Shown here: piece after piece, positions 35,588-58,530 of the stretch | Position numbering within the stretch: position 1 is the first letter of the stretch | How the letters are laid out: each line of letters begins with the position of its first letter | Assembly: GCA_945787785.1 (NCBI GenBank) | Contig: CALZIO010000003.1 | Span: 36,045 to 100,044, forward strand | Source: an uncultured Chromatiaceae bacterium | GTDB taxonomy: Bacteria; Pseudomonadota; Gammaproteobacteria; Tenderiales; Tenderiaceae | Length of the DNA: 64,000 nt | Direction: 5' to 3' | Translations under genes and position numbers: made by a program | The notes under the pieces: generated by a model | Told to the model about the DNA's origin: nothing | Databases searched by the model: none | The model's input: only the letters and a program-made list of their open reading frames with translations

Positions 35588-36059
35588 ACGCATTCCCGGA
35601 TTAAATCTAGCAAACCCGGTGCATTTACTTGCCTTCGGCTTCGGCTCTGGTGTGATGCCTAAGGCGCCAGGTACCTGGGGAACAGTGGTTGCCATTCCAA
35701 TCTATCTGTTACTCCATGAGTTGTCATTACTCCCTTATCTGATCGTGTTGTTTGTTATGACGCTGGTGGGGATATGGCTTTGCCATGTAACAGCTAATGA
35801 TCTGGGTGTGCATGATCACCCCGGTATTGTCTGGGATGAAATTGTTGGCTATCTGATTACTATGATCGCTGCGCCATCCGGCTGGGTTTGGTTGCTAGTT
35901 GGGTTCGTCTTGTTTCGGCTATTCGATATTCTCAAGCCATGGCCGATCCGTGTAATTGACAAGGGTGTTGAAGGCGGCCTGGGTATTATGCTGGATGACG
36001 TTTTAGCTGGGATAATGGCCTTGGCCGGTGTGCAGCTGCTGGCATATTTTATTCCTTAA
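35580..36059 (+). CDS. pgpA: Phosphatidylglycerophosphatase A
   Basis: TTG start overlapping the thiL end. NPVHLLAFGFGSGVMPKAPGTWGT..., FDILKPWPI. 159 aa. Confidence 0.9.
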   Translation: MTKRIPGLNLANPVHLLAFGFGSGVMPKAPGTWGTVVAIPIYLLLHELSLLPYLIVLFVMTLVGIWLCHVTANDLGVHDHPGIVWDEIVGYLITMIAAPSGWVWLLVGFVLFRLFDILKPWPIRVIDKGVEGGLGIMLDDVLAGIMALAGVQLLAYFIP

Positions 36060-43121: not shown

Positions 43122-45005
43122 ATGAGTAGTTACGACGCCTCCGCTATCGAGGTCCTCAGCGGTCTCGACCCGGTTCGCAAGCGCCCCGGCATGTACACCG
43201 ATACCACCCGCCCCAATCATCTGGCACAAGAGGTGATTGATAACAGTGTGGATGAGGCTGTCACAGGGTATGCAAAAAAGGTTGAAATCACACTCTATAA
43301 GGATGGTTCGCTTGAGGTGCAGGATGATGGCCGCGGCATGCCGGTGGATCTTCACCCCAAAGAGGGTGTCCCTGGTGTAGAAGTCATCCTGACCAAGCTC
43401 CATGCCGGCGGTAAGTTTTCCAACAAGAATTATCGTTTCTCCGGTGGTCTGCATGGCGTGGGTGTGTCTGTGGTGAATGCCCTCTCCAAACACCTGGAGG
43501 TGTGGGTCAAACGAGGTGGCCAGGAATACAATATCGCCTTCGCCAGTGGCAAAAAAGTTTCTGACCTGGAAGTGGTCGGCAAGGTTGGCAAGCAGAATAC
43601 CGGTACCCGGGTACGTTTCTGGCCCGACGAAAAGTTTTTTGATTCCAACAAAATCTCTGTCACCAAGTTAAAACACGTATTGCGGGCCAAGGCGGTGCTT
43701 TGTCCGGGCCTGTTAGTAAGCTTTTATGATGAAAAGTCAGGCGAGCAGGAAGAGTGGTGTTACGAAGATGGCCTGAGTGATTATCTTAGTGGTGCTTTAG
43801 AGGGATTTAGCTTGCTGCCGGAAGAGTTGTTTGTCGGCGGTACCGCTGCTGAGCATGAAGCCGCCGATTGGGCCGTGGTGTGGTTGCCTGAAGGTGGAGA
43901 GCTGATCACGGAAAGTTATGTCAATCTGATTCCCACCGCACAAGGCGGCACCCATGTGAATGGTTTGCGCACTGGCCTGACGGACGCCATCCGCGAGTTT
44001 TGCGAATTTCGTAATTTGATGCCGCGTGGCGTGAAGTTGGCGCCGGATGATGTGTGGGACAAGTGTGCCTATGTGTTGTCGGTAAAGCTGGAAGACCCTC
44101 AGTTCAGCGGACAGACCAAAGAGCGATTGTCATCGCGTGAATGTGCCCCGTTTATCTCCGGGGTGGTTAAGGACGCCTTCAGTTTATGGTTGAATCAGCA
44201 CACCGAAGCAGGTGAACAGATTGCCATGCTGGCCATTAGCAATGCCCAGTCGCGTATGCGCGCGGGTAAAAAAGTGATACGCAAAAAAGTGACCTCCGGA
44301 CCAGCGCTGCCGGGCAAGTTGGCCGATTGTAGTACACAAGACCCTGAACGGTCAGAGCTGTTTTTAGTGGAAGGGGACTCAGCCGGTGGTTCGGCCAAAC
44401 AAGCGCGCAATCGTGAATTTCAGGCCATTATGCCGTTGCGAGGCAAGATTCTGAACACCTGGGAAGTCGATCCTACCGAAGTGTTGGGATCACAGGAAGT
44501 GCATGATATTTCAGTAGCGGTCGGTGTGGAGCCGGGTTCGGATAATCTCAAGGGTTTACGCTACGGCAAGATCTGCATTCTGGCGGATGCCGATTCAGAT
44601 GGTGCCCATATTGCCACATTATTGTGTGCTTTGTTCTTGCGTCACTTTCGGCCGCTGGTCGATGCGGGGCATGTTTATGTGGCTATGCCACCTTTGTTCC
44701 GTGTTGATGTTGGTAAACAGGTTTTTTATGCCCTGGATGAAGCGGAAAGACAGGGCGTGCTTGACCGAATTACTGCTGAAAAGATCAAAGGTAAAGTTTC
44801 GATTCAGCGCTTCAAAGGGCTGGGTGAAATGAATCCCTTGCAGTTAAGAGAAACGACAATAGATCCTGATACACGTCGTCTGGTGCAACTGACCTTGGAC
44901 AGTGGTGATGATACCTACCAAGTGATGGATATGATGTTGGCGAAAAAACGATCTTCTGACCGGCGCTCCTGGTTGGAGACTAAGGGAAATCTGGCCGAGG
45001 TTTAA
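43122..45005 (+). CDS. parE: DNA topoisomerase IV subunit B
   Basis: YDASAIEVLSGLDPVRKRPGMYT, GGLHGVG, and Toprim motifs (LFLVEGDSAGGSAKQ, PLRGKILN). The 627-aa length fits ParE rather than GyrB. Confidence 0.93.
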   Translation: MSSYDASAIEVLSGLDPVRKRPGMYTDTTRPNHLAQEVIDNSVDEAVTGYAKKVEITLYKDGSLEVQDDGRGMPVDLHPKEGVPGVEVILTKLHAGGKFSNKNYRFSGGLHGVGVSVVNALSKHLEVWVKRGGQEYNIAFASGKKVSDLEVVGKVGKQNTGTRVRFWPDEKFFDSNKISVTKLKHVLRAKAVLCPGLLVSFYDEKSGEQEEWCYEDGLSDYLSGALEGFSLLPEELFVGGTAAEHEAADWAVVWLPEGGELITESYVNLIPTAQGGTHVNGLRTGLTDAIREFCEFRNLMPRGVKLAPDDVWDKCAYVLSVKLEDPQFSGQTKERLSSRECAPFISGVVKDAFSLWLNQHTEAGEQIAMLAISNAQSRMRAGKKVIRKKVTSGPALPGKLADCSTQDPERSELFLVEGDSAGGSAKQARNREFQAIMPLRGKILNTWEVDPTEVLGSQEVHDISVAVGVEPGSDNLKGLRYGKICILADADSDGAHIATLLCALFLRHFRPLVDAGHVYVAMPPLFRVDVGKQVFYALDEAERQGVLDRITAEKIKGKVSIQRFKGLGEMNPLQLRETTIDPDTRRLVQLTLDSGDDTYQVMDMMLAKKRSSDRRSWLETKGNLAEV

Positions 45006-45115: not shown

Positions 45116-47278
45116 TTGAATAGACGTGATCTTGCAGTATGGCCTGGTGAAGCCTACCCTCTTGGTGCAACCTGGGATGGTCAGGGGGTGAATTTCGCGA
45201 TCTTCTCTGAACATGCAGAGAAAGTTGAGTTATGTCTGTTTGATCCAAAAGGACGACGGACCACCCATGCTATCGATATGCGCTGGCAGACGGATCAGGT
45301 ATGGCATTGTTATTTGCCTGAGGCGCGTCCTGGCACCCTGTATGGCTATCGTGTCTATGGTCCTTATGACCCTTCAAACGGTCACCGCTTTAATCCGAAA
45401 AAACTGTTACTCGATCCTTACGCCAAAGACGTGTACGGCCAATTGCGCTGGAGTGATGCCCTGTTCGGTTATCGTGTTGGCCATCCCGATAAGGATTTGT
45501 CCTTTGATCGCCGTGATAGCGCCATGGGAATGTTAAAATCCCGCGTGGTTGATACGTCGTTTAGCTGGGGGGATGACAAACTATTACGTACGCCCTGGCA
45601 CGATACTGTGATTTATGAATTACACGTCAAGGGATTTACGGCGCTACATCCCGATATTCCGCCACAGTTACGTGGCACGTATGAGGGGCTTGCTTCGCCG
45701 CCTGTCATAGAGCATCTAAAACGCCTGGGTGTTACGGCAGTCGAGTTGATGCCTACGCATACATTCATTGATGACCGTCACTTGTTAGAAAAAGATTTGC
45801 ATAATTATTGGGGTTATAACTCCATCGGTTTTTTTGCCCCGGATTCACGTTATTCGGCGAGCGGCCACTTGAATGAATTCAAGACCATGGTGAAACGCTT
45901 TCACTCTGAGGGTATTGAGGTCATTCTCGATGTGGTTTACAACCACACCGGCGAAGGCAGCCATATGGGACCGACGCTCTGTTTTCGGGGTATCGATAAC
46001 CGTGCCTATTATCGTGTTAACCCGGAAGATAACCGTTATTACAAGGATTTTACCGGCTGTGGTAATACCTTGAATATGCGTCATCCACGCGTTTTACAGT
46101 TGATTATGGACAGTCTGCGTTACTGGGTGCTGGAGATGCATGTGGATGGTTTTCGTTTTGATCTGGCCTCAGCCCTGGCACGTGAACTACATGCTGTCGA
46201 CAGGCTTGGCGCCTTCTTCGATATCATCCACCAGGATCCGGTGTTGTCGCAGGTGAAATTGATTGCCGAACCTTGGGATCTGGGCGAAGGCGGTTATCAG
46301 GTAGGTAACTTCCCGGTTGGCTGGACTGAGTGGAATGGCAAATATCGTGACACCATGCGTGCCTACTGGAAAGGGGATGGTGGCTTGATCGGTGACATGG
46401 CCTATCGCATGACCGGCTCAAGTGATCTGTATGAGCACGGCGGCCGCCGGCCTTATGCCAGTATTAATTTTATTACCTGCCACGATGGTTTTACCTTGCG
46501 CGACCTGGTGAGCTACAACGAAAAACATAATGAAGCCAATGGTGAAGATAATCGTGATGGTGAAAGTCATAACCTGAGTTGGAATTGTGGCGAAGAGGGG
46601 CCCAGCAATAGTCAGCACATCAACACGTTGCGATTGCGCCAGCAAAGAAACTTTCTTGCTACCTTGTTGCTCTCTCAAGGTGTGCCGATGCTCACTGCAG
46701 GTGATGAAATGGGCCGCAGTCAACAAGGCAATAACAATGCCTATTGTCAGGACAGCGAACTCACCTGGATTGACTGGACACTGAGTAAGGAAAACCAGGA
46801 GCTATTGAAATTTGTTCAGCGCGTAATCAAATTGCGTAAAGAACATCCTAATTTCCGGCGGCGTTACTTTTTCCAGGGGCGGGACATTGTCGGTGCCGGC
46901 GTTAAAGATATTACCTGGCTACGCCCCATCGGTGGAGAAATGACAGATAAAGAGTGGCATCAGTCATTTGCCCGCTCCCTGGGGTTGTTTTTAGCAGGAG
47001 ATGCAATCGATGAGCATGATGAGCGTGGTGAAAAGATTAGCGATGATAATTTGATATTGTTATTTAATGCCCATCATGAAGATATTCCCTTTGTTTTGCC
47101 TGCTGAACCATCGCAGGCACGTTGGCAAGTGTTACTTGATACCAGCTATAGTGATGGAAATGGAGCGCCGGGCCGTTTGTACCATGCGAATGAGAAGTTT
47201 CCTCTGCAAAAGCGTTCATTTGTACTTCTGAAACAGCTAATCAGTCCACCGCTCCTCTCTATGGTGTCTTCCATCTGA
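45116..47278 (+). CDS. glgX: Glycogen debranching enzyme (GH13_11)
   Basis: TTG start. PYPLGATWDGQGVNFAIFS, DVVYNHT, GFRFDLA, IAEPWD, FITCHDGFTL. 720 aa. Confidence 0.93.
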   Translation: MNRRDLAVWPGEAYPLGATWDGQGVNFAIFSEHAEKVELCLFDPKGRRTTHAIDMRWQTDQVWHCYLPEARPGTLYGYRVYGPYDPSNGHRFNPKKLLLDPYAKDVYGQLRWSDALFGYRVGHPDKDLSFDRRDSAMGMLKSRVVDTSFSWGDDKLLRTPWHDTVIYELHVKGFTALHPDIPPQLRGTYEGLASPPVIEHLKRLGVTAVELMPTHTFIDDRHLLEKDLHNYWGYNSIGFFAPDSRYSASGHLNEFKTMVKRFHSEGIEVILDVVYNHTGEGSHMGPTLCFRGIDNRAYYRVNPEDNRYYKDFTGCGNTLNMRHPRVLQLIMDSLRYWVLEMHVDGFRFDLASALARELHAVDRLGAFFDIIHQDPVLSQVKLIAEPWDLGEGGYQVGNFPVGWTEWNGKYRDTMRAYWKGDGGLIGDMAYRMTGSSDLYEHGGRRPYASINFITCHDGFTLRDLVSYNEKHNEANGEDNRDGESHNLSWNCGEEGPSNSQHINTLRLRQQRNFLATLLLSQGVPMLTAGDEMGRSQQGNNNAYCQDSELTWIDWTLSKENQELLKFVQRVIKLRKEHPNFRRRYFFQGRDIVGAGVKDITWLRPIGGEMTDKEWHQSFARSLGLFLAGDAIDEHDERGEKISDDNLILLFNAHHEDIPFVLPAEPSQARWQVLLDTSYSDGNGAPGRLYHANEKFPLQKRSFVLLKQLISPPLLSMVSSI

Positions 47279-47694
47279 ATTCGCTCCGTTCCATTAATTT
47301 GGAATGCCTAAATCAACATCACTGTGAACGCATAGTCATTTCGTTAGCGGCGCTATCGAAGTGAGTTGACAAAAGTTCACATTTGCCATCCTGCCGAGTT
47401 GTACATCCTTATATTAAAGATTGTTGTTTATCAACTTCTAATAGAATCAATATCTTATATCCGTGATTTTTTTAGATAAAAGTCTTAATTGATTTTTGTG
47501 GTGGATTGATTCGATTTTCTCAGAATTAAATACCATGAAATTAACAGCTTAAATGGCTTGAGGGCTTACTAAAGGTTTTTCTCAAGGCGACGTTATCTTT
47601 TTTGCGTGGGGAGATCGTGATTGAGATCAACCAATTAAATAAGCAGTTTCACGCTTTAGAAAACATTGTTTGAAGGATCAAAAAGGTCAGATTA

Positions 47695-49326
47695 ATGATC
47701 ATGAATTTTGAGAAATTTCTTGGCAGGTTTAGTTGGCGAACCAAGATACTTGCTCTGTCTGGAATATTGGCAATAGGCACGGTTTCCGTAGGTGCCATGG
47801 GAGCCTATTCCATACTCAAGTTAAGCAAGGAAGTTAACGAAGCCAACGCTGAGGCAGCGCTGCGGATGAATACCGTTGAAGATGCGCAATTTGCACTGTT
47901 AAGAATGGGCATTGCACAAACCGAAGTCATTGCCCATGTTGATAAAAAAGAGATCAGGTCAGCTTCAGTAGCGGCCATTAAGTCTGCCAGTCATCTCGAA
48001 GAACAAATCACCAGGCTGCGTGATGTTATGCCAGAAAATGCTGATGTGGTGGAATTGCAGGAACTGATACAAAAAATTAATCCCAAGCGCATGGAAGTGA
48101 TCAAGTTGGCGCGTAAAGATCATGACCTGGAAGCGTTGCGCGCTGTGGATGTCATGGCCCCATTGTTTAAACGTGTTGATGAGTTGTCTGAGGCGATCAT
48201 CAATGGCCAGCGTGCCTCCATGGATGCACAACTGGTCGAGATCGAGCAAACAGGCAAACAGACAATTGTCTACTTGATGATTTTTGTTGGTATTGGACTT
48301 GCGGTCAGTGTTGCCTTGAGTCTGATTCTGGCCCGCTTTGCCACCAAGCCTATGTTTGCCCTTGAGGAAGCCATGCAATCACTCTCTGATGGTGATTTAA
48401 GAGTTAAATTGGATAACTGTGGCACTGACGAGGTAGGACGCATGGTAGATGCCATGAGTAATACAGTCAGTGATCTCCATTCGATTGTGACAAATATCCA
48501 TTCCGGTACTGAAGTGCTTAGCCGTCAGGCCGAGAGTGTGGCGCAAACCGCCGATGGTATCCACGATGTGTCTGCCAGGCTGCATGGCAGTGTTAAAAAT
48601 ATCAAAGGTGACGCAGAAATAGTTAAGTCCACTACCAATGGCGCAGTGACTGAACTGGAACGTGCTGCCGTAACGGCACAAGAGTCTGCTGATACCTCAG
48701 AAAATATGGCGCATAGGATTAATGATACTGCAGCCAGCTTTGAGCGCTTCCAGGAAAATATGGAACATACCGCACAAGTAACACGTGAGCTGTCTATGAC
48801 AGCCGAAACCATTACTGCGATTACCAAGACGATTCGTGATATTTCATCCCAGACAAATTTGCTAGCACTCAATGCTGCCATCGAGGCCGCTCGTGCCGGT
48901 GAGCAGGGGCGCGGTTTTGCTGTCGTGGCTGATGAAGTTCGTCAGTTGGCTTCAAGAACTGAGGAGGCAACTTCAGAGATTTCCGGTTTGGTCGAAACAA
49001 TTTCATCAAGTGTAGGCAATGCCGTTCAGATGCTCGAGAGTTCAGTAAGTGAATCTCGAAATAATATTGAACGGCTCAAAGGGGTGTCAGAAGAAACTTC
49101 AGTGAGCCGTGATCAGGCTGTGCATCTGCGTGAAGCAATGCATGGAGTTGTGCAGATGATCGGTGATCAGGAACAAGCTGTGGTAGGCATCAATGAAGCT
49201 GTTACCCAGTTGTTTGAATTGAGTGGTGAAACAAACAGCCAGACTGAGTTGCTGCATAGCTTGTCTGGTGAGTTGAATGAAGCTGCTGCAGAACTTGGCC
49301 ATGTAGTCGATAAGTTCAAACTGTAG
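47695..49326 (+). CDS. Methyl-accepting chemotaxis protein (TM1, helical periplasmic domain, TM2, HAMP, signalling domain)
   Basis: Conserved hairpin tip: [43 protein letters not shown]. Two TM helices flank a region of about 150 aa. 543 aa. Confidence 0.9.
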
Positions 49327-49382
49327 GTGTTTCCATTTTGTAAGTCGATTTACCTGGATATATCAATAATGAGGAGGAACTC

Positions 49383-50435
49383 ATGAAATTAAGTACCTTT
49401 GGTCAGAAAAACCTGACAAAGAAGATTGCCACTGCTTTGATAGGTGTGTCTGTCGTTATAGGTGCAACCACTGCAGCTGCCGCTGCAATGAAACCTAGCT
49501 CTGAAGATGTGAAGAAATACCTGCGTCCAATGGAAGTGCCTCAAGGCAAAAATAACATCAGTACACCGGAGAGAGTTGAACTGGGTAAGGTGCTGTTTTT
49601 TGATCCTCGTCTTTCTGGCTCAAACTTCATCAGCTGTGCTACCTGTCATAACCCAGCCCTGGGTTGGTCTGACGCACAGCCGACAGCGGTAGGGCACGGT
49701 ATGCAGATTCTTGAGCGGTCGACGCCAACTATTCTGAATACAGCTTACCAGCGTTTTCAGTTCTGGGATGGCCGTGCCCGTACGCTGGAAGATCAGGCGA
49801 CTGGCCCAATTGAAGCTGGTGGTGAAATGGCGCAGCCTATTGATGAACTGGTACCTGAGCTGGAGGCGATTCCCGATTATGTCGCCATGTTCGAAGCAGC
49901 TTATCCTGGTGAAGGTGTTTCCAAGGAAACGATAGGTAAGGCAATTGCGGTATTTGAGCGCACAGTTGTATCAACCGACTCAGATTTTGATCGCTGGTTG
50001 AAAGGTGTTAACGGTGTCATGAGTAAAGAGGCGCTGCGTGGTTTTGAAGTATTCAAAGGTAAAGCCAACTGTGTTGCTTGTCACGACGGCTTTAACTTCA
50101 GTGACAATGGTTTTCATAACATTGGTCTGAAAGACATGGAAGATCCCGGTCGCTTCGCTATTAAGCCAATCAAAGTGTTAAAAGGTGCTTTTAAGACACC
50201 AACCCTGCGTGATGTCGCACTGACAGCACCATATATGCACAACGGTGCTTATGCCACGTTGGAAGAAGTGATCGATCATTACAATGCGGGCGGCTTTGAA
50301 AACGCAGGCACGCTTTCTCCAAACATGAAGCCTCTCAAGCTTAGCAAAAAAGAGAAGCGGGACCTGGTTGAATTTCTGAAAGCGCTGACCGGTGATCCAA
50401 TGGAAGTCGCTGTGCCTCAGTTGCCAGTCAACTAA
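49383..50435 (+). CDS. Periplasmic di-haem cytochrome c peroxidase, CcpA/MauG family
   Basis: Signal peptide. Two CxxCH motifs (CATCH, CVACH). FWDGRA.TLEDQA.GPI, TPTLRDV..TAPYMHNG. 350 aa. Good RBS (GAGGAGGAAC). Confidence 0.9.
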   Translation: MKLSTFGQKNLTKKIATALIGVSVVIGATTAAAAAMKPSSEDVKKYLRPMEVPQGKNNISTPERVELGKVLFFDPRLSGSNFISCATCHNPALGWSDAQPTAVGHGMQILERSTPTILNTAYQRFQFWDGRARTLEDQATGPIEAGGEMAQPIDELVPELEAIPDYVAMFEAAYPGEGVSKETIGKAIAVFERTVVSTDSDFDRWLKGVNGVMSKEALRGFEVFKGKANCVACHDGFNFSDNGFHNIGLKDMEDPGRFAIKPIKVLKGAFKTPTLRDVALTAPYMHNGAYATLEEVIDHYNAGGFENAGTLSPNMKPLKLSKKEKRDLVEFLKALTGDPMEVAVPQLPVN

Positions 50436-50465
50436 TACCGGTTCAAGGATAGAAAGGAGAAAAAC

Positions 50466-50801
50466 ATGTTAAGTAAGAAGTTAACTACTATGGGACTGGT
50501 TGCGCTGTTTATGTCGGCAACTGCAAGTGCCGGTGACCATACCATTGCGCAAAACAGCAAGAGTTTTAAATTAAATGGCTCTCAGGTTGAAGAGTATACA
50601 ATTAAGGCGGGTGAAACGATTCATTTCAAGAATGAAGACCCGTTTTTTCATAATATCTTTTCATTATCAGACCTGAAAACATTTGACCTGGGTTCATATC
50701 CGGCAGGCGAATCAAAGTCTGTGACGTTTGACACTCCGGGTGAAGCCGAAATTGAGTGTGCGATTCATCCTGAAATGTACCTGCTGCTCACGGTGGAATA
50801 A
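50466..50801 (+). CDS. Small secreted cupredoxin with a complete type-1 copper ligand set
   Basis: Signal peptide ...ATASA/GD. First His in FFHNIF (plastocyanin-like HN). C-terminal loop ECAIHPEM = C-x2-H-x2-M, as in amicyanin. The mature protein is about 89 aa. RBS AAGGAGAAAAAC. Confidence 0.7.
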   Translation: MLSKKLTTMGLVALFMSATASAGDHTIAQNSKSFKLNGSQVEEYTIKAGETIHFKNEDPFFHNIFSLSDLKTFDLGSYPAGESKSVTFDTPGEAEIECAIHPEMYLLLTVE

Positions 50802-51463
50802 TGAAAATCCCAGGGATTGTGGTCAGCATGATGGTGCTGATAGTTTCTATCAGCGTCGTCAACCTGGTCCATGCAGGCGAGACTGATACGCGCAAGGAAA
50901 TACGTGCGGCAAAGTCAAAGCCCACCATCAGAGGCGGTATCGTCTACAAGAATTATTGTGTCCTCTGTCATGGTGAACGCGGCGATGGAATGGCCCGTGC
51001 AACCAAGCTTTATGGTCAGGGAAACCTGGTGATAAAAGCGCGCGATGACGACTATTATCAACAGATTATTCGATATGGCGGTTCTTCAGTAGGTCTTTCC
51101 AGATATATGCCGGCCTGGGAAGAGGAGTTGTCGGAAGAACAGATTAACGACGTGATTGATTATATATCTATCGTTAATGACCCGGTTGAGCGAGGCAGGG
51201 TCGTGTTTATGACCAGCTGTATCCTTTGTCATGGTGTTAAGGCTAATGGCAAGGGGCGTGCCTCGGTAATGTATGACCCCAGGCCGGCTGATCTAACCCG
51301 CAGTGATAAAAATGACTCGTATAAAAAGATGATTATTACCATGGGCGGTGAGGCCATGGGGCGCTCGAAAGTAATGCCGCAGTGGGGGCTGCAACTGAAA
51401 GAGCAGGAAATCGACGATGTAATCGAGTATCTGCGCACAATATTGGTTAAACCTCTGAAATGA
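50801..51463 (+). CDS. Di-haem c-type cytochrome (two class-I cytochrome c domains)
   Basis: The ATG overlaps the cupredoxin stop (TAATG). Signal/anchor helix. Haem sites CVLCH and CILCH, each followed by a candidate Met ligand (RYMPAW, KVMPQW). Confidence 0.85.
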   Translation: MKIPGIVVSMMVLIVSISVVNLVHAGETDTRKEIRAAKSKPTIRGGIVYKNYCVLCHGERGDGMARATKLYGQGNLVIKARDDDYYQQIIRYGGSSVGLSRYMPAWEEELSEEQINDVIDYISIVNDPVERGRVVFMTSCILCHGVKANGKGRASVMYDPRPADLTRSDKNDSYKKMIITMGGEAMGRSKVMPQWGLQLKEQEIDDVIEYLRTILVKPLK

Positions 51464-51498
51464 TAGACGCTGCGAGTAAATCCGTAAAAGGAAGCCTT

Positions 51499-52251
51499 AT
51501 GTTTCGATTTGTGCAAAAAATAGCGGCTTCGGCTGGCAGGGTGGGGATCATTATTGGTTTGCTGGGAATGTCACTGACGGTGGCGCCGAGTTATGCTGCA
51601 GATAATAATGCTGATGAAGAGGCGAAGCAGCAAGCTAAAATAGAAATCAGGGAAACACGAAAACAAATTCGTAAAGTGATGCGGATTGCCAGGGAAAAAA
51701 TGAAACAGGCTGTTCGTGGTGGTCAGGTATACAAGACTTATTGCGTCCTGTGTCATGGTGAGAATGGCGCTGGTGATGGCCCGTTAAGTGCGGTGTATGA
51801 CGATTTATCACTTAAGATCAATAAACAGTCGCAGGAGTTTTATGGAAAGATTGTTGAAGGCGGCGGGGCAGCTGTAGGCCGTTCAGCCTTCATGCCGACC
51901 TGGCGAGATGAGCTTTCTGAAGAACAAATTGAAGACGTAGTTATGTATCTCTCCATGCTTTCCGATCCAGTTCGCCGTGGTGAAGTTGTATTCAAGACCA
52001 GCTGTATCCTCTGTCATGGGGTGAATGGTGATGGTATGGGGCGTGCCTCGGTATTGTTTGACCCGCCACCTGCTGACCTGACTCGAAGCGATAAGAACGA
52101 CACCTACAAGAAGATGATCATCACCATGGGTGGTGCTGCCATGGGACGTTCCGAGGTCATGCCCATCTGGGGGCAAGAGCTGAGCGAACAACAGATTGAT
52201 GATGTGGTTGCGTATCTGCGTACTATCCTGGTAATACCGCCGCCAGATTAA
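51499..52251 (+). CDS. Di-haem c-type cytochrome, paralog of the preceding gene
   Basis: Start chosen at the ATG at 51499, after AAGGAAG (MFRFVQKIAAS...APSYA/AD signal). Haem sites CVLCH and CILCH. The C-terminal domain is highly similar to that of 50801..51463 (TSCILCHGV...GRASV..DP.PADLTRSDKND.YKKMIITMGG.AMGRS.VMP.WG). Confidence 0.85.
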   Translation: MFRFVQKIAASAGRVGIIIGLLGMSLTVAPSYAADNNADEEAKQQAKIEIRETRKQIRKVMRIAREKMKQAVRGGQVYKTYCVLCHGENGAGDGPLSAVYDDLSLKINKQSQEFYGKIVEGGGAAVGRSAFMPTWRDELSEEQIEDVVMYLSMLSDPVRRGEVVFKTSCILCHGVNGDGMGRASVLFDPPPADLTRSDKNDTYKKMIITMGGAAMGRSEVMPIWGQELSEQQIDDVVAYLRTILVIPPPD

Positions 52252-52304
52252 ATGTCAGACTTAATAAGAGGCTCCTTAATTTAACAATAAAGTAATATTG
52301 CCAA

Positions 52305-52328
52305 GGGATGGTTCGCCATCCCTTTTTA
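52305..52328 (+). terminator. Intrinsic terminator closing the MCP-peroxidase-cupredoxin-cytochrome gene string
   Basis: GGGATGG-ttcg-CCATCCC followed by TTTTTAG. Confidence 0.88.
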
Positions 52329-52474
52329 GTTTGGGAGAGTCTGCTGTGGCTCTCTATCAGCAAAGTATTTGTCGAATGCCTACCCGCCCTGTATAGTTAT
52401 TTTATCGCTTTTTGATTTGTTGTTCGTTAAGGCCAGATGTTTTTAATAACCAGAAACTAAGGGTAGGGCAAATA

Positions 52475-53269
52475 ATGAAAAAGTTATATCTGATAACACT
52501 AGTATTAGCTGTAAGCCTGGGGATGACAGTAAATTCTGCCGCTGCTGAACAAGGGCAGGGCTACATCTCACAGAATTCTTTAATCCCAAGTTCAAGCGTA
52601 GGCAAGCAGCATAAACTTATTGTTATCGCACAGGCAGCGTCTGTTATGCAGGACTCAGATAGTGATGGTGTAGCCGATGCTGAGGATCTTTGTCCGACTG
52701 CACATCCTGATGCAATAGTGGGTGCCGATGGATGTGAGCTGGATGGCGACAAGGATGGTGTGGTTAATCGCCTTGATAATTGCCCGGAAACAAAGTCAGG
52801 TGTGAGCGTCGATGCCAATGGCTGTGAATTAGATGCAGACGGCGATGGTGCCTTCGATAGTGATGATGTTTGCCCCGACACACCAGCCGGCAGACGGGTG
52901 GATCTGGTCGGCTGTGAAATTCCGCTGGTGATAATACTCAAGGGTGTAAACTTCCACACCGACTCAGCTGATTTGACTGACGGTTCAACGCAGGTGCTGG
53001 ATGGTATGGTTGCCATTCTAATAAAGTACCCGAACATGGTCGTCGAGGTGGGTGGTTATACCGATAATACTGGTACCAAGAAGATAAATTATTCTTTATC
53101 GCAACGCCGTGCCCAGGCAGTGCTTGACTACCTGGTGAGTCAGGGTGCAAATCCAGATGTGCTGACCGCCAAGGGTTATGGACCGGAAGATCCAATCGCG
53201 GATAACGATACCGAAGCCGGCCGGACTGAAAATCGTCGGGTAGAACTGCATATCGAAGAGAAAAAGTAG
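52475..53269 (+). CDS. OmpA-family protein with thrombospondin type-3 (calcium-binding) repeats
   Basis: Start moved to MKKLYLITLVLAVSLGMTVNSAAA (signal peptide). TSP3-like repeats: DSDGVADAEDLCPT, DGDKDGVVNRLDNCPET, DADGDGAFDSDDVCPDT. C-terminal OmpA domain: VEVGGYTDNTG....NYSLSQRRAQAV..YL, NRRVELHI. Confidence 0.85.
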   Translation: MKKLYLITLVLAVSLGMTVNSAAAEQGQGYISQNSLIPSSSVGKQHKLIVIAQAASVMQDSDSDGVADAEDLCPTAHPDAIVGADGCELDGDKDGVVNRLDNCPETKSGVSVDANGCELDADGDGAFDSDDVCPDTPAGRRVDLVGCEIPLVIILKGVNFHTDSADLTDGSTQVLDGMVAILIKYPNMVVEVGGYTDNTGTKKINYSLSQRRAQAVLDYLVSQGANPDVLTAKGYGPEDPIADNDTEAGRTENRRVELHIEEKK

Positions 53270-53475: not shown

Positions 53476-54771
53476 ATGAATAAGTCGTATCTGGCATCAT
53501 TTGCCGCAGCTGTAAGCCTGGTGGTTTCTAGCAATTCTGGCGCAGTAGAGCCTGGACAATGGTACTTTTCACCAAATCTTTCATACGTCATTGCAGACAG
53601 TGACAGGGCTGCAGATAATGATTTTGGATTGCAGCTGGGTTTTGGCCGAGCGCTTAGCAAATCCTGGAATATCGAATTAAGTGGCGTTATGGATACGCTT
53701 GATCTGGAGAGTGGAGCTGGAGAGTATAAACAGCGTGGTTTGCAGTTGGATGGTCTCTACTTTATTAATCGTGATCTAAAAGTTGATCCATATTTCGTTT
53801 TCGGTGTTGGTGGTATGAAAACAAGCTTTGCCAGCAACAAAGATACTAATCTGATGGCTAACGTGGGTGTTGGGGTGTCACACCTGATAACAAAAACTCT
53901 CAGCTTACGTGCCGATGCCCGTTATCGCATTGATGAAGATGATAAGAGCGTTGCTGGAAACAATCGCTTTGGTGACTGGATTGTAAATATTGGTTTGTTT
54001 GTACCTTTTGGTAGTTCAAAGGCCGCTGCTGAACCCGTTGCCGCCGCAGTCGTTGTACCTGCCGTTGTGGATACAGATGGTGATGGTGTAAACGATGTCA
54101 ACGATCGTTGTACTGATACCCCGGCAGGTGTCATCGTGGATGCCAACGGTTGTGAGCTGGATGGTGATAATGATGGGGTTATTGATCGTTTAGATAGTTG
54201 TCCTGAAACAATGACAGGTTTAACTGTTGATGCAAAAGGTTGTGAGCTGGATGGTGATAATGATGGGGTTACTGATCGTTTAGATAGTTGTCCTGAAACA
54301 ATGACAGGTTTAACTGTTGATGCAAAAGGTTGTGAGCTTGATTCGGATAGTGACGGAGTCGTCGATAGTGCTGACAACTGTGCAAATACTGTATCAGGTA
54401 CCAAGGTAGATGTTCATGGCTGTGAAATTCCTGAAGTGGTTGTGCTGAAGGGGGTTCACTTCAATACTGGTTCAAATCAGTTGACAGAAACGTCTATGGT
54501 TGAACTGAATGACGTGGCTGCTTCACTGAAGAAACATTCGGACTTGGTCGTTGAAGTCGCCGGATATACCGATAATACCGGTCCGAAGCAGTTGAATTAT
54601 TCTTTGTCACAGCAACGTGCTGAGTCAGTGGTTGACTATCTGATCAGCCAGGGTGTTGATGCGGCGAATTTGACCGCAAAGGGATACGGCCCTGAAGCAC
54701 CAATTGCAGATAACTCAACTCCAGCAGGCCGGGCTGAAAATCGCCGTGTGGAACTGCACATAGCAGAGTAA
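53476..54771 (+). CDS. Outer-membrane protein: N-terminal beta-barrel, TSP3 repeats, C-terminal OmpA peptidoglycan-binding domain
   Basis: Signal peptide. About 170 aa of alternating beta-strand-like sequence (GVGVSHLITKTLSLRADARYRI...). Four or five TSP3 repeats (DTDGDGVNDVNDRCTDT, DGDNDGVIDRLDSCPET twice, DSDSDGVVDSADNCANT). OmpA_C domain: VEVAGYTDNTG...NRRVELHI. Confidence 0.85.
   Translation: MNKSYLASFAAAVSLVVSSNSGAVEPGQWYFSPNLSYVIADSDRAADNDFGLQLGFGRALSKSWNIELSGVMDTLDLESGAGEYKQRGLQLDGLYFINRDLKVDPYFVFGVGGMKTSFASNKDTNLMANVGVGVSHLITKTLSLRADARYRIDEDDKSVAGNNRFGDWIVNIGLFVPFGSSKAAAEPVAAAVVVPAVVDTDGDGVNDVNDRCTDTPAGVIVDANGCELDGDNDGVIDRLDSCPETMTGLTVDAKGCELDGDNDGVTDRLDSCPETMTGLTVDAKGCELDSDSDGVVDSADNCANTVSGTKVDVHGCEIPEVVVLKGVHFNTGSNQLTETSMVELNDVAASLKKHSDLVVEVAGYTDNTGPKQLNYSLSQQRAESVVDYLISQGVDAANLTAKGYGPEAPIADNSTPAGRAENRRVELHIAE
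54151..54338 (+). repeat. Near-perfect 90-bp tandem direct repeat (2 units plus 8 bp) inside the OmpA gene
   Basis: 54151-54240 and 54241-54330 differ at one base (54182 T versus 54272 C, Ile to Thr). Each unit encodes CELDGDNDGV(I/T)DRLDSCPETMTGLTVDAKG. The next 8 bp (tgtgagct) repeat again. Confidence 0.95.
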
Positions 54772-54823: not shown

Positions 54824-55423
54824 CTAATTGTTGCTTTTTATTTGTTTGATTGTCTCAGCTAGCTCGTTGCTGAAGTCAGACACGCATTCGCTCAGAGCCT
54901 GAACCAGGGCCTCATACTCTTTACTGCTGGCTTGATTAACAAATTCACGGCTTTGCGTTGGGTGAAGCATCTCATTATTTTTATCGATTAACTCCCAACG
55001 CACACTAAGTCTGGCTACATTGCTGCTGTCGGTATCAAATCTCAATACCTGAATCCGAGCTTGCACGTCGAGCTGATTGTTATTAAGTCTGGGAAATTTG
55101 CTGATATCAGCATTGGGTAAAGCGATGCTGAGGTTTTGAGCTACAACGCGGGCAAAGTTCATTTCAAGTGGTTCAGCCCAGCGATGGTATTCAGAAGCAT
55201 GCAGACTGTTGTCACTTGTCATTATGACGATCTGTTTACGCTTAAGGTAGGCGGGTAACTCAATCGGTCCAAGACCAATGTGAATATTGTATTCAGCAAT
55301 TTCGGTTGTTGCTGTCGTTGCGTTGGCACTTAGCAGATACAACTGCGAAGAGGGTGTGGTACCGCAACCACTGATGCCAAATGCCAGGATGTTAATTAAC
55401 AACAATCTACGTATTAGCTGCAT
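54824..55423 (-). CDS. ABC-transport auxiliary lipoprotein (PqiC/YmbA-like, DUF330-type)
   Basis: Lipobox LAFGISGC. About 199 aa. It is the last gene of a permease-ATPase-MCE operon, where this family normally sits. Confidence 0.65.
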   Translation of the reverse strand: MQLIRRLLLINILAFGISGCGTTPSSQLYLLSANATTATTEIAEYNIHIGLGPIELPAYLKRKQIVIMTSDNSLHASEYHRWAEPLEMNFARVVAQNLSIALPNADISKFPRLNNNQLDVQARIQVLRFDTDSSNVARLSVRWELIDKNNEMLHPTQSREFVNQASSKEYEALVQALSECVSDFSNELAETIKQIKSNN

Positions 55424-55425
55424 GA

Positions 55426-56448
55426 TTAATTTCCACGAGATGATTTACCTCTCAAAAGGGCTTCAGGGTTTTTTTCCAGGGTATTAGCCAGGCTATTAAT
55501 GGCGCGTGCAGCGCTCGTAATTTCTTGCAAGGTCTGTGTGAGAAGATAATATAATTGTGAATCTGGTGAGACGATATTGTTGGTGACCCCCGCAGTTGTC
55601 TGTATCTCATTTAGTGCACCTTCGGCACTGCTACTAAGACGCTCAGCACTGTCACGTAATTCTTTGACTAAATCGCTTGAGTCGCTAATCAGCCCATCGC
55701 CTGATTCGATTAAGCCGCGTGTTGACTTAAGCGTGGCGCGTAGATCGGTCAGAGTAAGGTTGAGATCACCGCTGATTTTTCCAGTATGCTGGTCAAGCCG
55801 TTCTGCCAGGATGGTGTATTGATTGAAGGTTTGATCGATACTTTGAATCGCTTTTAACAAATTCGGGTCGTTGGCCAGTTTTTCGATACCCTCGATTGCA
55901 CTCGCCACGTCATTAAGGACTTTCTCAACGGGAAAGTCTTCAAGCTTGCGGCTGATTTCCTGCATGGGTGTTGGAATCGTGGGGATTTCCCTGTATTCAT
56001 TGATGACCCCCACCAGTTTGGCCGGTGTATCCGGATGCATATCGAGTTGAATAGCAAGTTGGCCGGTGAGCAGGCTTTCCAGCTGTAACTGCGCGCGCAG
56101 GCCCTGATCGATCATGTCGCCCACACGTTGCATTCTCAGTTTGGTCATCTTCTCGCCACTCATGAGGGATATGCGCTCGACTTCCAGGTCAGCGTATACC
56201 GGGATCACAATGCGCAGTGTGTCGGGATCGACCATTAGATGCACATCGGTGACGTTGCCGATCTTAACGCCACGAAAATTAACCGGGGCACCAATGTCCA
56301 AGCCCCTTACCGAGCTGTCGAAAAACATGACGAAGCGGTACTTGTCACGCAATACACCGCTGCCGAACAGGAAAGCTGCGCCAATGGCGAGAATGATGGC
56401 GCCGACGATAAATAGGCCGATGAGGGTGGCGTTGGCGCGGCGACTCAT
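55426..56448 (-). CDS. MCE (MlaD/PqiB-family) substrate-binding protein with a long helical C-terminal extension
   Basis: N-terminal TM anchor (LIGLFIVGAIILAIGAAFLF). MCE domain: GLDIGAPVNFRGVKIGNVTDV. Then about 190 aa of helical sequence. The start overlaps the ATPase stop (ATGA). Confidence 0.85.
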   Translation of the reverse strand: MSRRANATLIGLFIVGAIILAIGAAFLFGSGVLRDKYRFVMFFDSSVRGLDIGAPVNFRGVKIGNVTDVHLMVDPDTLRIVIPVYADLEVERISLMSGEKMTKLRMQRVGDMIDQGLRAQLQLESLLTGQLAIQLDMHPDTPAKLVGVINEYREIPTIPTPMQEISRKLEDFPVEKVLNDVASAIEGIEKLANDPNLLKAIQSIDQTFNQYTILAERLDQHTGKISGDLNLTLTDLRATLKSTRGLIESGDGLISDSSDLVKELRDSAERLSSSAEGALNEIQTTAGVTNNIVSPDSQLYYLLTQTLQEITSAARAINSLANTLEKNPEALLRGKSSRGN

Positions 56449-57221
56449 AATTCTCCCCGGTTGAGGAAGGCCCGGACACGTTCATCCGGACACTCATTCT
56501 TTAGCTGTCTCGGATTGCCGCTGGCGATCATGGTCTTGGCCTCCGCATCGAGGAATATTGAATTATTACCGATCGCGAAGATACTCGCCAATTCGTGCGT
56601 TACGACTACGATAGTCGTTCCAAGGCTGGCGTTTAGTTCAAGGATCAATTCATCCAGGCGGCGTGAGCTGACTGGATCAAGACCAGCGGAGGGTTCGTCG
56701 AAGAAAAGAATTTCCGGATCAAGGGCCATGGCGCGTGCCAGAGCGGCGCGTTTGCGCATGCCGCCGCTGATCTCTGCCGGGTAGAGATCAGCGCAACCGG
56801 CCAGCCCTACCAAGGCCAGTTTGTAATCTACTACGTCACGGATGTCAGATTTACTCAGGATGCTGTACTCACTTAGAGGCAAAGCTATATTTTCTGCCAC
56901 CGTCATGGCGCTGAATAGCGCGCCACTCTGAAATAACACACCAAAGCTGCGTTTGATCTGTTCTTGTTGATTGTGCGGGGCGTGTGAGAAGTTCACCTGG
57001 TTGATAAAGACTTCACCCTTGGCCGGTTCTTGCAGGCCAATCAAATGGCGCAGGATCGTGCTTTTACCGCAGCCACTGCCGCCCATGATGATGAAAATAT
57101 CGCCACGCTGAATAGAGAAATTCAGGTATTGCTGAACGATATAGTCACCATAGGCAGCCGTGAGATCACACACTTCGATATGTGCGTTATTCACTTGTGG
57201 GGCAATCGCTACCTGTTGCAT
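56445..57221 (-). CDS. ABC transporter ATP-binding protein (MlaF-like)
   Basis: Start moved to MQQVAIAP... at 57221, 2 nt after the permease stop. Walker A GGSGCGKST. Signature ISGGMRKRAALARA. Walker B ILFFDEPSAGLDP. Confidence 0.9.
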   Translation of the reverse strand: MQQVAIAPQVNNAHIEVCDLTAAYGDYIVQQYLNFSIQRGDIFIIMGGSGCGKSTILRHLIGLQEPAKGEVFINQVNFSHAPHNQQEQIKRSFGVLFQSGALFSAMTVAENIALPLSEYSILSKSDIRDVVDYKLALVGLAGCADLYPAEISGGMRKRAALARAMALDPEILFFDEPSAGLDPVSSRRLDELILELNASLGTTIVVVTHELASIFAIGNNSIFLDAEAKTMIASGNPRQLKNECPDERVRAFLNRGEL

Positions 57222-57223
57222 TC

Positions 57224-58378
57224 TCAGATTCCCAGCTTTTGATAGATGATCGTCATGATTGACGCAGTAATAACAATGAAAACAATACTGGTCACTACCG
57301 CAGAAGTTGTCGCTTGCCCCACCGCTGCAGAGCTGCGGCCACATTGAATACCGCGCAAGCAACTGGCGATGGCAATACAAATACCGTAGACGACTGCCTT
57401 GCTTAGCCCAACCAACACATGGCTCATCTCCATGGTGCGCAGTGTTTGGACATAGTACTCGAAAGCGCTGATATCGAAGATAGTGACAGCTACCGCCAAG
57501 CCCGCCAATATACCGACCAGATCGGCATACAGGGTCAGCAATGGGATCATTAACACCAGTGCTAACAGCCTTGGCACCACGAGAAAATCAATTGGCGAGA
57601 TACCAAAGGTCTTGAGGGCGTCGATTTCCTCATTGACCTGCATGGTGCCTATCTCAGCGGCATACGCCGCACCTGTGCGGCCTGCGATGATCACGCCGGT
57701 CATCAAGGCGCCGATCTCGCGCACCATGCCGATACCAACCAGGTCGGCGATATAGATTTGGGCGCCAAACATTGCCAATTGGGCCGCGCCCATGTAGGCA
57801 AGGATCAGGCCGACCAGAAAGCTGATCAACGACACAATGGGTAATGCCTGTGGTCCGGCCCCTTGCAGCAGCAGGCCAAGATCGACGCGGCGGAAACGAA
57901 CACGGCCTCGCAAGGTGTTAAACAGGGCAATGCCACAGTCGCCGATGAAGTTTAGTGCCTTAGGCGCGCCGTACCAAAACTCGAGAGTGGTTTCACCCAC
58001 ATGATTAAGTAACGAGTCTTTCTCAAACATTTCATCGTCACGGCCGCGACTGGGTGCGGTTTCTGCCAAATTCAGCAAGCGTTGGACGCCTGCGGGCAGG
58101 CCGCTCAGATCGGCGTGAATACCACGTGCTTGAATGTTGTGGATAAAGTTGCGCAGGAACACCACCAATGCCGTGTCCCAGCTGTTGAGTTGTTGGCTAT
58201 CGAAATTTAAAGATTGCAGTTTAGGGCTGGAATCGATTTGGCTGACCAGCGTCTCGACATGGGGTATGCCGCTTTGCAAGCGCCAGTCACCTGCCAGCCG
58301 CATTTGCAGGGTGTCTGGTTCTTGTGGAAGCAGTTCATAACTCCAGGCTGACGTATTTACGGCTGTTGTCGTCTCCAT
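57224..58378 (-). CDS. MlaE-family ABC permease with an N-terminal STAS-like (MlaB-like) domain fused
   Basis: About 120 aa of N-terminal soluble region (LQMRLAGDWRL...LNFDSQQLNSWDTALVVFL) followed by the MlaE core (...GAQIYIADLVGIGMVREIGALMTGVIIAGRTGAAYAAEIGTMQVNEEIDAL). 384 aa. Confidence 0.85.
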   Translation of the reverse strand: METTTAVNTSAWSYELLPQEPDTLQMRLAGDWRLQSGIPHVETLVSQIDSSPKLQSLNFDSQQLNSWDTALVVFLRNFIHNIQARGIHADLSGLPAGVQRLLNLAETAPSRGRDDEMFEKDSLLNHVGETTLEFWYGAPKALNFIGDCGIALFNTLRGRVRFRRVDLGLLLQGAGPQALPIVSLISFLVGLILAYMGAAQLAMFGAQIYIADLVGIGMVREIGALMTGVIIAGRTGAAYAAEIGTMQVNEEIDALKTFGISPIDFLVVPRLLALVLMIPLLTLYADLVGILAGLAVAVTIFDISAFEYYVQTLRTMEMSHVLVGLSKAVVYGICIAIASCLRGIQCGRSSAAVGQATTSAVVTSIVFIVITASIMTIIYQKLGI

Positions 58379-58530
58379 ACGATTCCAATTGTGCCAGTTG
58401 TACCAGACCTACAGATTGATTGTAACGCCGCTTTATATTGCGTGCAGTAGAGTTTTCAAGCAGTCCTGTCAGTGTGTCAATGTCTCGGTATAATAGCCCG
58501 CACAAAATAAACCAGCAGGCAGTCAAGCGC

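Follow-up and report, generated by a model that had tools for sequence, protein, structure and literature searches.

The 64,000-nucleotide stretch analysed here (the window: positions 36,045 to 100,044 of contig CALZIO010000003.1, from an uncultured Chromatiaceae bacterium placed in the Tenderiaceae) contains five genes in a row, in which a chemoreceptor gene of the methyl-accepting chemotaxis protein (MCP) type is followed by genes for a periplasmic di-haem enzyme, a cupredoxin and two di-haem cytochromes c. We found that the periplasmic sensor domain of this receptor belongs to a small family that occurs essentially only beside such an enzyme, cupredoxin and cytochrome (hereafter the trio), also when the domain is carried by signalling proteins of other kinds. 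With moderate confidence, we read the locus as a conserved four-component signalling cassette, in which a sensor protein and three periplasmic redox proteins would act together in oxidant or redox signalling. The elements of the locus are the following, in window positions:

47695-49326, plus strand: MCP gene, 543 aa (open reading frame and Pfam)
49327-49382, plus strand: spacer between the MCP and enzyme genes, 56 nt, terminator-free, with GAGGAGG 6 nt before the ATG
49383-50435, plus strand: gene of the periplasmic di-haem enzyme, of the bacterial cytochrome c peroxidase (bCCP)/MauG superfamily, 350 aa (open reading frame and Pfam)
50466-50801, plus strand: cupredoxin gene, 111 aa (open reading frame and Pfam)
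50801-51463, plus strand: first di-haem cytochrome c gene, 220 aa (open reading frame and Pfam)
51499-52251, plus strand: second di-haem cytochrome c gene, 250 aa from an MFRF start (alternative ATG at 51460)
52303-52324, plus strand: hairpin of an intrinsic terminator, with a 9-bp G+C-rich stem, a 4-nt loop and a T run to 52334

Pfam recognises 4HB_MCP_1, HAMP and MCPsignal in the receptor, CCP_MauG in the enzyme, Copper-bind in the cupredoxin, and Cytochrome_CBB3/Cytochrom_C twice in each cytochrome.

An earlier note on this DNA, made from its letters, had proposed that the chemoreceptor is tied to a private redox module; it suggested a gene-neighbourhood survey and named the absence of the MCP beside the redox genes in all relatives as an argument to the contrary. 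We surveyed the neighbourhoods from both sides. Starting from the redox genes, one search was based on the enzyme (one genome per species, best 80 loci) and another on the cupredoxin (a metagenome scan with a cupredoxin alignment). The order MCP-enzyme-cupredoxin-cytochrome, on one strand, was found in six close relatives and in about a dozen more distant Gammaproteobacteria, and the MCP gene is divergent at loci L026 and L030. In the metagenome scan, cupredoxins of 47% identity or more adjoin an enzyme and a cytochrome, and new gene orders appeared: enzyme-cupredoxin-cytochrome-MCP in L091, and MCP-cupredoxin-cytochrome-enzyme in L094 and L106. Among the 31 fully flanked modules, meaning those with 2 kb or more on either side, a member of the sensor family lies within 4 kb of 23, and 29 have some signalling protein alongside. 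The six signalling neighbours of other kinds are a further MCP (L112), an MCP with a dCache sensor, an MCP with another four-helix bundle (4HB), a 670-aa MCP, an OmpR-type regulator with its kinase, and a HAMP-PAS-GGDEF-EAL-CZB protein. We asked whether the alternative sensors at L117, L050, L096, L097 and L104 could be distant members of the family; hhalign gave probabilities of 22% or less, and they were treated as unrelated.

The other side of the survey started from the sensor. Using the 155-aa domain as a phmmer query, 190 matches at E≤1e-3 and 40 at E≤1e-10, most of them in proteins of ~540 aa, were obtained among 1.84 billion representative proteins, which means that we are dealing with a small, distinct family and not with generic 4HB domains. 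A profile of the sensor alignment run against a set of 5.8 billion proteins retrieved only 12 proteins, all of them short (130-267 aa) and probably fragments. Nine loci were looked up by the sensor only, with identities down to 23-25%, and form an unbiased sample: the full trio adjoins the sensor in 7 of them (L162, L164, L165, L167, L169, L172 and L174). The remaining two are L163, with broken genes and a CCP_MauG fragment, and L171, a 5-kb contig with only a cytochrome of the module type. All sensor loci were then pooled at 95% identity, most of these having been retrieved via the redox genes. The pool amounts to 39 non-redundant loci (23 clusters at 60% identity) from Gammaproteobacteria, Acidobacteriota and metagenomes, and 36 of the 39 have the full trio within 6 kb. 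Writing S for sensor, P for enzyme, U for cupredoxin and C for cytochrome, the orders S-P-U-C, P-U-C-S, S-U-C-P and divergent arrangements are all represented. This variability in order and orientation argues against mere inheritance of synteny, and since the arrangement is conserved in many unrelated genomes, it is far beyond chance. Further conserved genes of the cassette were sought among the flanking genes, which differ by lineage, except for MsrPQ in two loci (see below). The link between MCP and redox module is thus strongly supported from both directions, and the absence of the receptor from the relatives did not occur.

In most members of the family the sensor is fused to an MCP. The same domain (E values of 1e-22 to 1e-27 against that of the window) was also found on non-MCP outputs, each time beside the trio: on a hybrid histidine kinase in L028 (Candidatus Acidoferrum) and L162, on a PAS-kinase in L034 (Acidobacteriota), and on a PAS-GGDEF-EAL-REC protein in L167. 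Relatives of the acidobacterial type of sensor, 52-56% identical, are carried by MCP signalling domains in the soil contigs L090, L092 and L102. The sensor follows the gene set while the output changes, which indicates that the sensed signal is tied to that gene set.

Some neighbours of the cassette have to do with oxidants. Genes for MsrP-MsrQ (Oxidored_molyb and Ferric_reduct) follow the cassette on the same strand in L165 (8780-10449), L166 and L174 (8882-10561); these cases are the loci of two sensor representatives, which fall in separate clusters at 50% identity. In L165, the next gene after MsrPQ encodes a PilZ protein. At L096 (10261-13158), a module devoid of the family sensor is followed by a gene for a 965-aa HAMP-PAS-GGDEF-EAL protein that ends with a CZB domain; the N-terminal sensor of this neighbour has no detectable kinship to the sensor family. 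Both MsrPQ and CZB domains have been connected with oxidant stress and the sensing of oxidants, CZB for instance with that of hypochlorous acid. These neighbours support an oxidant theme, as circumstantial evidence.

We then considered how the five genes would be expressed. The layout that the earlier note had described was recovered in all its elements: five open reading frames on the plus strand, behind an AT-rich leader of 416 bp (~33-34% GC, compared to ~47% for the genes around), separated by 56 nt, 30 nt, a TAATG overlap between the cupredoxin stop and the cytochrome start, and 35 nt, and closed by a single strong terminator, which the note had put at 52305. The region 52252-52345 folds with -26.1 kcal/mol (z = -2.3), and a terminator scan of the five genes found its hairpin to be the sole convincing one. 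In the spacer between the MCP and enzyme genes, RNA folding is on par with that of shuffled sequence (z = -0.05), in agreement with the claim that this gap has no hairpin; a scan of the same spacer for terminator-like and sigma-70-like sites detected none, and its GAGGAGG is the strong ribosome-binding site of the note. Among the relatives this spacer measures 0 to 113 nt. The N-termini of all four redox proteins, judged by inspection, resemble signal peptides, as had been claimed. From the short or overlapping spacers, the lack of an internal terminator and the conserved adjacency, we infer that the five genes are probably transcribed as one unit.

The leader was aligned with those of six relatives, and one conserved core came out of it:

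47568-47596, plus strand: candidate sigma-28 (FliA)-type promoter, ACTAAAG - 14 nt - GACGTTAT (conserved motif)

Transcription is predicted to start near 47604, leaving a 5′ untranslated region of ~90 nt. The sigma-28 consensus is TCTAAAG / GCCGATAA, with elements 14 nt apart in the fliC promoter of P. aeruginosa (PMC12784957); in the candidate, 6 of 7 and 5 of 8 positions agree with it and the spacing is exact. A search of the whole window with the pattern TAAAGNTT-N11-GNCGNTA gave a single occurrence, for 0.00 expected (100 shuffles). A relaxed form, TAAAG-N13-16-CG[ATC]TA, precedes the start of the receptor gene by 66-131 nt in 13 of the 31 MCP-type loci, and it extends to distant cassettes (L017-L019, L100, L165, where it reads GCCGATA, and L169). 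None of the four loci of the kinase or GGDEF type has it. The operon thus appears to be driven by a flagellar sigma-28 promoter. If transcribed as one unit from there, the redox proteins would be made together with the motility and chemotaxis regulon and not with a stress regulon, which would suit a sensory accessory better than a stress enzyme. No che gene lies nearby, as the earlier note had remarked, and no flagellar gene either, within 10 kb. Two 9/10 matches to the FNR/CRP-type box TTGAT-N4-ATCAA are present in the leader, at 47421-47434 and 47617-47630; FNR/CRP-type regulation of the operon was dropped, because these boxes are conserved in no close relative.

The two small carriers of the cassette are of known kinds. 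The cupredoxin matches Copper-bind (PF00127) with 26.2 bits for a cut-off of 21.2, and its type-1 copper ligands H62, C98, H101 and M104 (codons verified) are invariant in 19 of 19 aligned homologues. Their spacing, C-x2-H-x2-M, is amicyanin-like, and weak PDB matches were obtained with amicyanin and with a copper nitrite reductase chain. The 19 homologues also share an unusually conserved surface block, DPFFHNIFSLSD.KTFDLGS. In soil metagenomes, more distant relatives of the cupredoxin (L120-L161, 39-59% identity over part of the domain) are mostly encoded away from any di-haem enzyme, with L121, L141 and L154 as exceptions. One of them, L136 (7761-8537), has the domain within a 258-aa protein, preceded by a 592-aa protein, neither of which has a Pfam match; such a setting is a separate, uncharacterised context for this type of cupredoxin.

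The first cytochrome has the haem-binding and Met motifs CVLCH/MPAW and CILCH/MPQW, and two stretches matched by each of the Pfam families Cytochrome_CBB3 and Cytochrom_C. The second follows the same pattern. Both are CcoP-like di-haem proteins, and the nearest solved relatives are CcoP subunits of cbb3 oxidases. It is the first cytochrome that is kept across cassettes. The second, 60% identical to the first, was found only in the closest relatives (L002-L006 and L056) and is a recent, lineage-specific tandem duplicate. As all more distant cassettes have one cytochrome, the ancestral cassette comprised four genes. The redox set announced in the earlier note therefore stands as far as its domains are concerned; the pair of di-haem cytochromes is no general trait, and the enzyme has a Tyr where a Met was to be expected (see below). 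In L002 (12070-13577), ~1.5 kb separate the tblastn matches to the cytochrome paralogues, compared to 35 nt in the window. In L015, L016 and L030, an additional gene for a mono-haem cytochrome c lies just upstream of the receptor gene.

How such a cassette might work can be sketched from family knowledge. Cupredoxins and c-type cytochromes are established donors to di-haem peroxidases, as with pseudoazurin and c550 in Paracoccus, or azurin and c551 in Pseudomonas. Cytochrome and cupredoxin would pass electrons to the di-haem enzyme, where H2O2, or possibly O2, would be reduced. Periplasmic oxidant versus electron supply would then be reflected in the redox poise of the small carriers, and the cofactor-less sensor would read the state of a soluble partner by protein-protein contact. 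Judging from the domain content, the signal would travel through HAMP to the MCP signalling domain and bias swimming. The outcome would be oxidant or redox taxis, and in other lineages histidine kinases or cyclic di-GMP (c-di-GMP) enzymes would take the same input. A more specific version, which we regard as possible but less likely than not, is that the trio, far from being a side-branch for detoxification or respiration, forms the detector head of a split periplasmic receptor for oxidants or redox state: the enzyme would turn H2O2 or O2 into oxidation of a carrier, or into its own high-valent state, and this would be read by contact. Under this version, the enzymatic front end would be a portable input module plugged into chemotaxis, two-component and c-di-GMP outputs.

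Several observations weigh against a signalling cassette of this sort. Seven of the 31 fully flanked modules have no MCP or family sensor within 4 kb (tblastn), and an eighth, L112, has only an MCP from outside the family. Pfam identified signalling proteins with unrelated sensors (dCache, another 4HB) or other architectures beside 5 of these 7, and such neighbours fit a module regulated by, or useful with, signalling as well as they fit a specific contact. Paralogues of the enzyme, 61-69% identical, exist without partners in seven loci (L007-L011, L013 and L014). In distant cassettes, the sensor is 32-37% identical to that of the window while the enzyme is ~60% identical; such fast divergence is typical of domains that bind small ligands, and small molecules are the usual ligands of 4HB domains with this fold. 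In two loci, independent transcription of the redox genes may occur as well: the MCP-enzyme spacers of L019 and L022, ~105 nt long, contain an FNR-like box (TTGATTTTTATCAT and TTGATTTTCGCCAT), which hints at a separate low-oxygen promoter for these genes. Finally, Tyr-His ligation, to which the enzyme is assigned below, is the hallmark of the protein-modifying MauG/MbnH type, so the enzyme may serve for something other than simple peroxide reduction.

The first matter to weigh is what the sensor itself could bind. The receptor is organised as follows:

aa ~17-37: first transmembrane segment; aa ~193-215: second transmembrane segment; aa 212-254: HAMP; aa 352-506: signalling domain
47806-48270, plus strand (aa ~38-192): periplasmic four-helix-bundle sensor (Pfam and AlphaFold2)

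MCPsignal (PF00015) scores 113.6 bits (cut-off 34.6), HAMP 29.5 bits (cut-off 25) and 4HB_MCP_1 (PF12729) 31.4 bits (cut-off 27), and hydrophobic segments at aa 17-37 and 193-215 flank the sensor, which is the architecture of an MCP. The earlier note had announced a periplasmic helical sensor domain and suggested a structure prediction; the AlphaFold2 model of aa 38-192 is indeed made of four helices (pLDDT 85). Foldseek aligned it to 4HB domains of chemoreceptors and kinases with TM-scores of 0.75-0.88, the ligand-binding domains of Vc1313 and MCP2201 among them, at identities of 17% or less and E values of 2.5e-3 or worse. A search of the PDB sequences with the sensor profile returned no chemoreceptor or sensor domain, the sole match at E<0.01 being a ribosomal protein (0.0015). 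Sequence kinship to a sensor of known ligand, as a guide to the ligand, was therefore not found. Across 17 sensors, R88, I95, L101, E103, L108, P130, I136 and A147 are invariant; the conserved polar residues are R57, present in most sequences, the invariant R88, and the acidic pair E102/E103. A haem, copper or thiol site was sought in the periplasmic part of the same 17 sensors, and no Cys, His, Met or Trp is conserved there. This makes direct peroxide, haem or copper chemistry unlikely, and means that a domain so poor in redox-active and metal-binding residues either binds a small ligand non-covalently or recognises a protein. What the sensor reads would thus be a small ligand or the state of a redox partner, and not H2O2 itself.

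The small ligand is the basis of a first alternative, in which the sensor serves a cognate oxidative enzyme system and binds a substrate, product or correlate of the enzyme reaction. The redox proteins would then be metabolic or detoxifying and stay outside the sensor, and the response would be swimming, gene induction or a change in c-di-GMP. We find this doubtful, even if a good part of the sensor data would suit it: the fold is that of chemoreceptor 4HB domains binding malate/citrate, D-amino acids or aromatic acids, R57, R88 and E102/E103 could form a ligand site, and the sequence diverges fast. Sensors encoded beside the genes of the pathway they report on are also common, NarX, TorS and PcaY being examples. 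However, H2O2 is implausible as a reversible pocket ligand, and the gene content suggests no other substrate. Control by sigma-28, that is, with motility, would be odd for a catabolic or detoxifying system, and the near-exclusive linkage, observed in both directions and with three types of output, is tighter than is usual for ligand sensors.

The second matter is what the enzyme does, and its key positions are these:

49635-49649, plus strand: first haem motif of the di-haem enzyme, CxxCH, C85-H89
50070-50084, plus strand: second haem motif, CxxCH, C230-H234
50280-50282, plus strand: Tyr300, predicted axial ligand of the second haem (alignment)

The protein scores 194 bits with Pfam CCP_MauG and has the other key residues of a bCCP: W128, between the haems, and Q138 and E148, the catalytic residues at the peroxidatic haem. 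Its full-length matches in the PDB are Geobacter CcpA (1e-67), MbnH (1e-41), MauG (1e-20) and BthA (1e-11), the best of the full-length matches to solved structures being peroxidases (1e-52 to 1e-67). These top matches would make it a canonical peroxidase, an assignment ruled out by residue-level alignment, where a Tyr stands at the position of the Met ligand. In Geobacter CcpA, the Met ligand of the electron-transfer haem is M297, 74 residues past the haem His, and it is aligned with Tyr300; His-Met ligation of the high-potential electron-transfer haem is thus absent as far as alignment alone can tell. Tyr300 falls on Tyr294 of MauG ('AILFYNK') in an alignment that is gap-free from PSLRNVA.T.PYMHNG, and it also aligns with the Tyr of 'VIDIYSEGG' in MbnH, which is the best solved relative of the C-terminal 91 residues (7e-14). 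It is present in 118 of 119 homologues, a set biased towards Tyr by one of the retrieval patterns, EEVIDHYN, and the nearest Met, M315, in 45 of the 119. Y300, W128, Q138, P142 and E148 are all kept in 34 of 34 cassette enzymes, including those retrieved by the cupredoxin, and in 7 of 7 enzymes reached via the sensor. Only 14 of the 34 have the distal His found in reductively activated peroxidases. As for NCBIfam, the top models are TTQ_mauG (TIGR03791; 316.9 bits, cut-off 443.85) and the MbnH family (TIGR04039; 213.6, cut-off 362.85), and neither cut-off is reached. We therefore class the enzyme as a Tyr-His representative of the superfamily that stands outside all named families. Extra copies of its gene occur in tandem, two in L024 (2896-7095) and three in L030 (2172-7310), the last of these with a second cupredoxin.

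Met-His versus Tyr-His ligation divides the peroxidases from the bis-Fe(IV) enzymes MauG and BthA (Rizzolo et al., PMC6405878). In MauG, Tyr294 is the axial ligand of the six-coordinate haem, and Tyr-His ligation does not prevent BthA from reducing H2O2 in the presence of donors (PMC6405878). In the case of MbnH, a Trp of the neighbouring protein MbnP is turned into kynurenine (PMC11951088). Tyr300 would shift the cassette enzyme towards this MauG/MbnH class, but no Trp-bearing substrate is evident. A second alternative follows from these enzymes, and we judge it unlikely: an enzyme brought to the bis-Fe(IV) state by H2O2, or by O2 plus electrons from the cytochrome and cupredoxin, would oxidise a residue in the cupredoxin, the cytochrome or the sensor, and so create or switch a cofactor or a signalling state. 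Such a maturation role would account for a Tyr placed exactly on those of MauG and MbnH and invariant in all cassette enzymes, for the C-terminal domain being nearest to MbnH, and for the two best NCBIfam models; Tyr-His ligation underlies the bis-Fe(IV) chemistry (PMC6405878), and action on a Trp of a neighbouring protein has its precedent in MbnP (PMC11951088). The cupredoxin with its amicyanin-like spacing fits as well. Amicyanin is encoded in mau clusters. On the other hand, both NCBIfam cut-offs are missed, and neither the operon nor the surrounding 20 kb has a gene for methylamine dehydrogenase (MADH) or an MbnP-like protein. The cupredoxin of the window is Trp-free, and the periplasmic sensor is without a conserved Trp or Tyr. 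Over its full length the enzyme is nearer to genuine peroxidases (1e-67) than to MbnH or MauG. Besides, the stand-alone paralogues share the Tyr, which makes it a trait of the clade and not of the cassette.

Least probable of all, in our view very unlikely, is that the genes are merely co-expressed under a condition where both are useful (e.g. an oxic-anoxic interface), with a receptor sensing something unrelated and no coupling: several modules do adjoin unrelated types of sensor, and Campylobacter docA (peroxidase) and docB (MCP) are adjacent and both listed as colonisation factors (PMC3156733), but this leaves unexplained a sensor family that is found essentially only beside the trio, an association that outlasts rearrangement across phyla, and the re-use of the sensor with kinase and c-di-GMP outputs.

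Around the operon lie mostly housekeeping genes. Upstream, at 43122-45005 and 45116-47278, are genes for a parE-like topoisomerase IV subunit B and a GlgX-type debranching enzyme. Of these, parE keeps its place beside the MCP gene in close relatives, where glgX is often missing. Just past the terminator, two genes in tandem (52412-53269 and 53476-54771) encode OmpA-family proteins, associated with the outer membrane or peptidoglycan, in which calcium-binding repeats of the thrombospondin type-3 kind are present, preceded in the second protein by a beta-barrel at the N-terminus. An OmpA2-like gene follows the cassette in L002 and L003 (one tblastn match region each), and in L022 a homologue is located ~3 kb upstream on the opposite strand. 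Further downstream in the window, on the other strand, is an Mla-like lipid-transport cluster (54824-58378: ABC_trans_aux, MlaD, ABC ATPase and MlaE), and beyond it a parC-like gene (58438-60780).

Every part of the cassette is of a known kind, donors for di-haem peroxidases are textbook matter, and adjacency of a peroxidase and an MCP gene is known from docA-docB. Three things appear to be new: a sensor-domain family essentially restricted to the neighbourhood of a Tyr-His di-haem enzyme, a cupredoxin and a cytochrome; the re-use of this family with three output classes across phyla; and the apparent placement of the MCP versions under a flagellar-type promoter. We searched the literature for a description of the cassette and found none, which is weak evidence of novelty given that subscription papers were incompletely covered. 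The known peroxide sensors OxyR and PerR are cytoplasmic, and the chemoreceptors known to respond to oxidants do so through CZB or PAS-FAD domains, which are cytoplasmic as well. How bacteria sense oxidants or redox poise in the periplasm is poorly understood, and the cassette, whose hosts include sulfur-oxidising Gammaproteobacteria and soil Acidobacteriota, provides a concrete, testable candidate. It defines a small new family of sensor domains whose signal can be pursued. It also gives a context, and so a route to function, for the large uncharacterised Tyr-ligated branch of the bCCP/MauG superfamily, and may be relevant to DocA of Campylobacter, a peroxidase of unexplained role that is encoded beside the DocB chemoreceptor. 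If the trio were a detector head, this would be the first dedicated periplasmic chemoreceptor complex for peroxide or redox state that senses via an electron-transfer chain.

Compared to the bCCPs, such as the Paracoccus and Pseudomonas CCPs, Geobacter CcpA/MacA and E. coli Ccp (a respiratory H2O2 reductase), the cassette enzyme is likewise periplasmic, has two haems and keeps W128, Q138 and E148, and a cupredoxin and c-type cytochromes are plausible donors here too. It differs in having Tyr300 in place of the Met ligand and no conserved distal His, and the cassette in having the donors and a dedicated sensor in the same operon, apparently driven by sigma-28. Respiratory use of di-haem peroxidases, with H2O2 as terminal acceptor, has been described at oxic-anoxic interfaces (PMC8115020). 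With MauG, MbnH and BthA, the enzyme has in common the Tyr at the axial position, the MbnH-like C-terminal domain and the top NCBIfam models. A partner gene beside that of the enzyme is found for MbnH-MbnP as in the cassette, and mau clusters contain a cupredoxin, amicyanin, as the cassette does. The differences are a score below the cut-offs of both families, a higher full-length similarity to peroxidases, and the lack of a substrate gene of the MADH or MbnP type and of a conserved Trp in the neighbours; MauG, MbnH and BthA, for their part, are not known to be linked to a signalling protein.

The earlier note knew of no described system linking an MCP to such a module. This holds for the full cassette, which we did not find in the literature covered, and has to be qualified by a partial precedent: in C. 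jejuni, docA, for a cytochrome c peroxidase homologue, is immediately upstream of docB, for an MCP (Tlp10). The C. jejuni peroxidases did not contribute to H2O2 resistance, and mutation of docA or docB impaired chick colonisation (PMC3156733). A gene of the di-haem peroxidase family directly beside a chemoreceptor gene is what the two systems share; no cupredoxin or cytochrome is reported at docA-docB, the order is enzyme then MCP, and the comparison made here is one of gene adjacency. Periplasmic redox sensing by MCPs of bacteria from redox interfaces is described for Geobacter GSU0582/GSU0935 and Desulfovibrio DcrA (PMC3460858). These haem c chemoreceptors are PAS-like and bind their own covalent haem, whereas the cassette sensor is a cofactor-less four-helix bundle with the redox centres on separate proteins.

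In kind, the cassette would come closest to accessory-protein-mediated sensing, as in H-NOX/NosP with kinases, c-di-GMP enzymes or MCPs, in TorS with TorT and the cytochrome TorC, and in chemoreceptors that read periplasmic binding proteins, where a separate, often haem-containing detector is read by an adjacent signaller in the membrane or cytoplasm. MCP, kinase and GGDEF/EAL outputs are served there by the same input, as they are in the cassette. The comparative evidence for the cassette is strong and the hypothesis lends itself to direct tests; its signal and mechanism are inferred. What would set the cassette apart is its proposed front end, a periplasmic electron-transfer chain of three proteins, one of them an enzyme.

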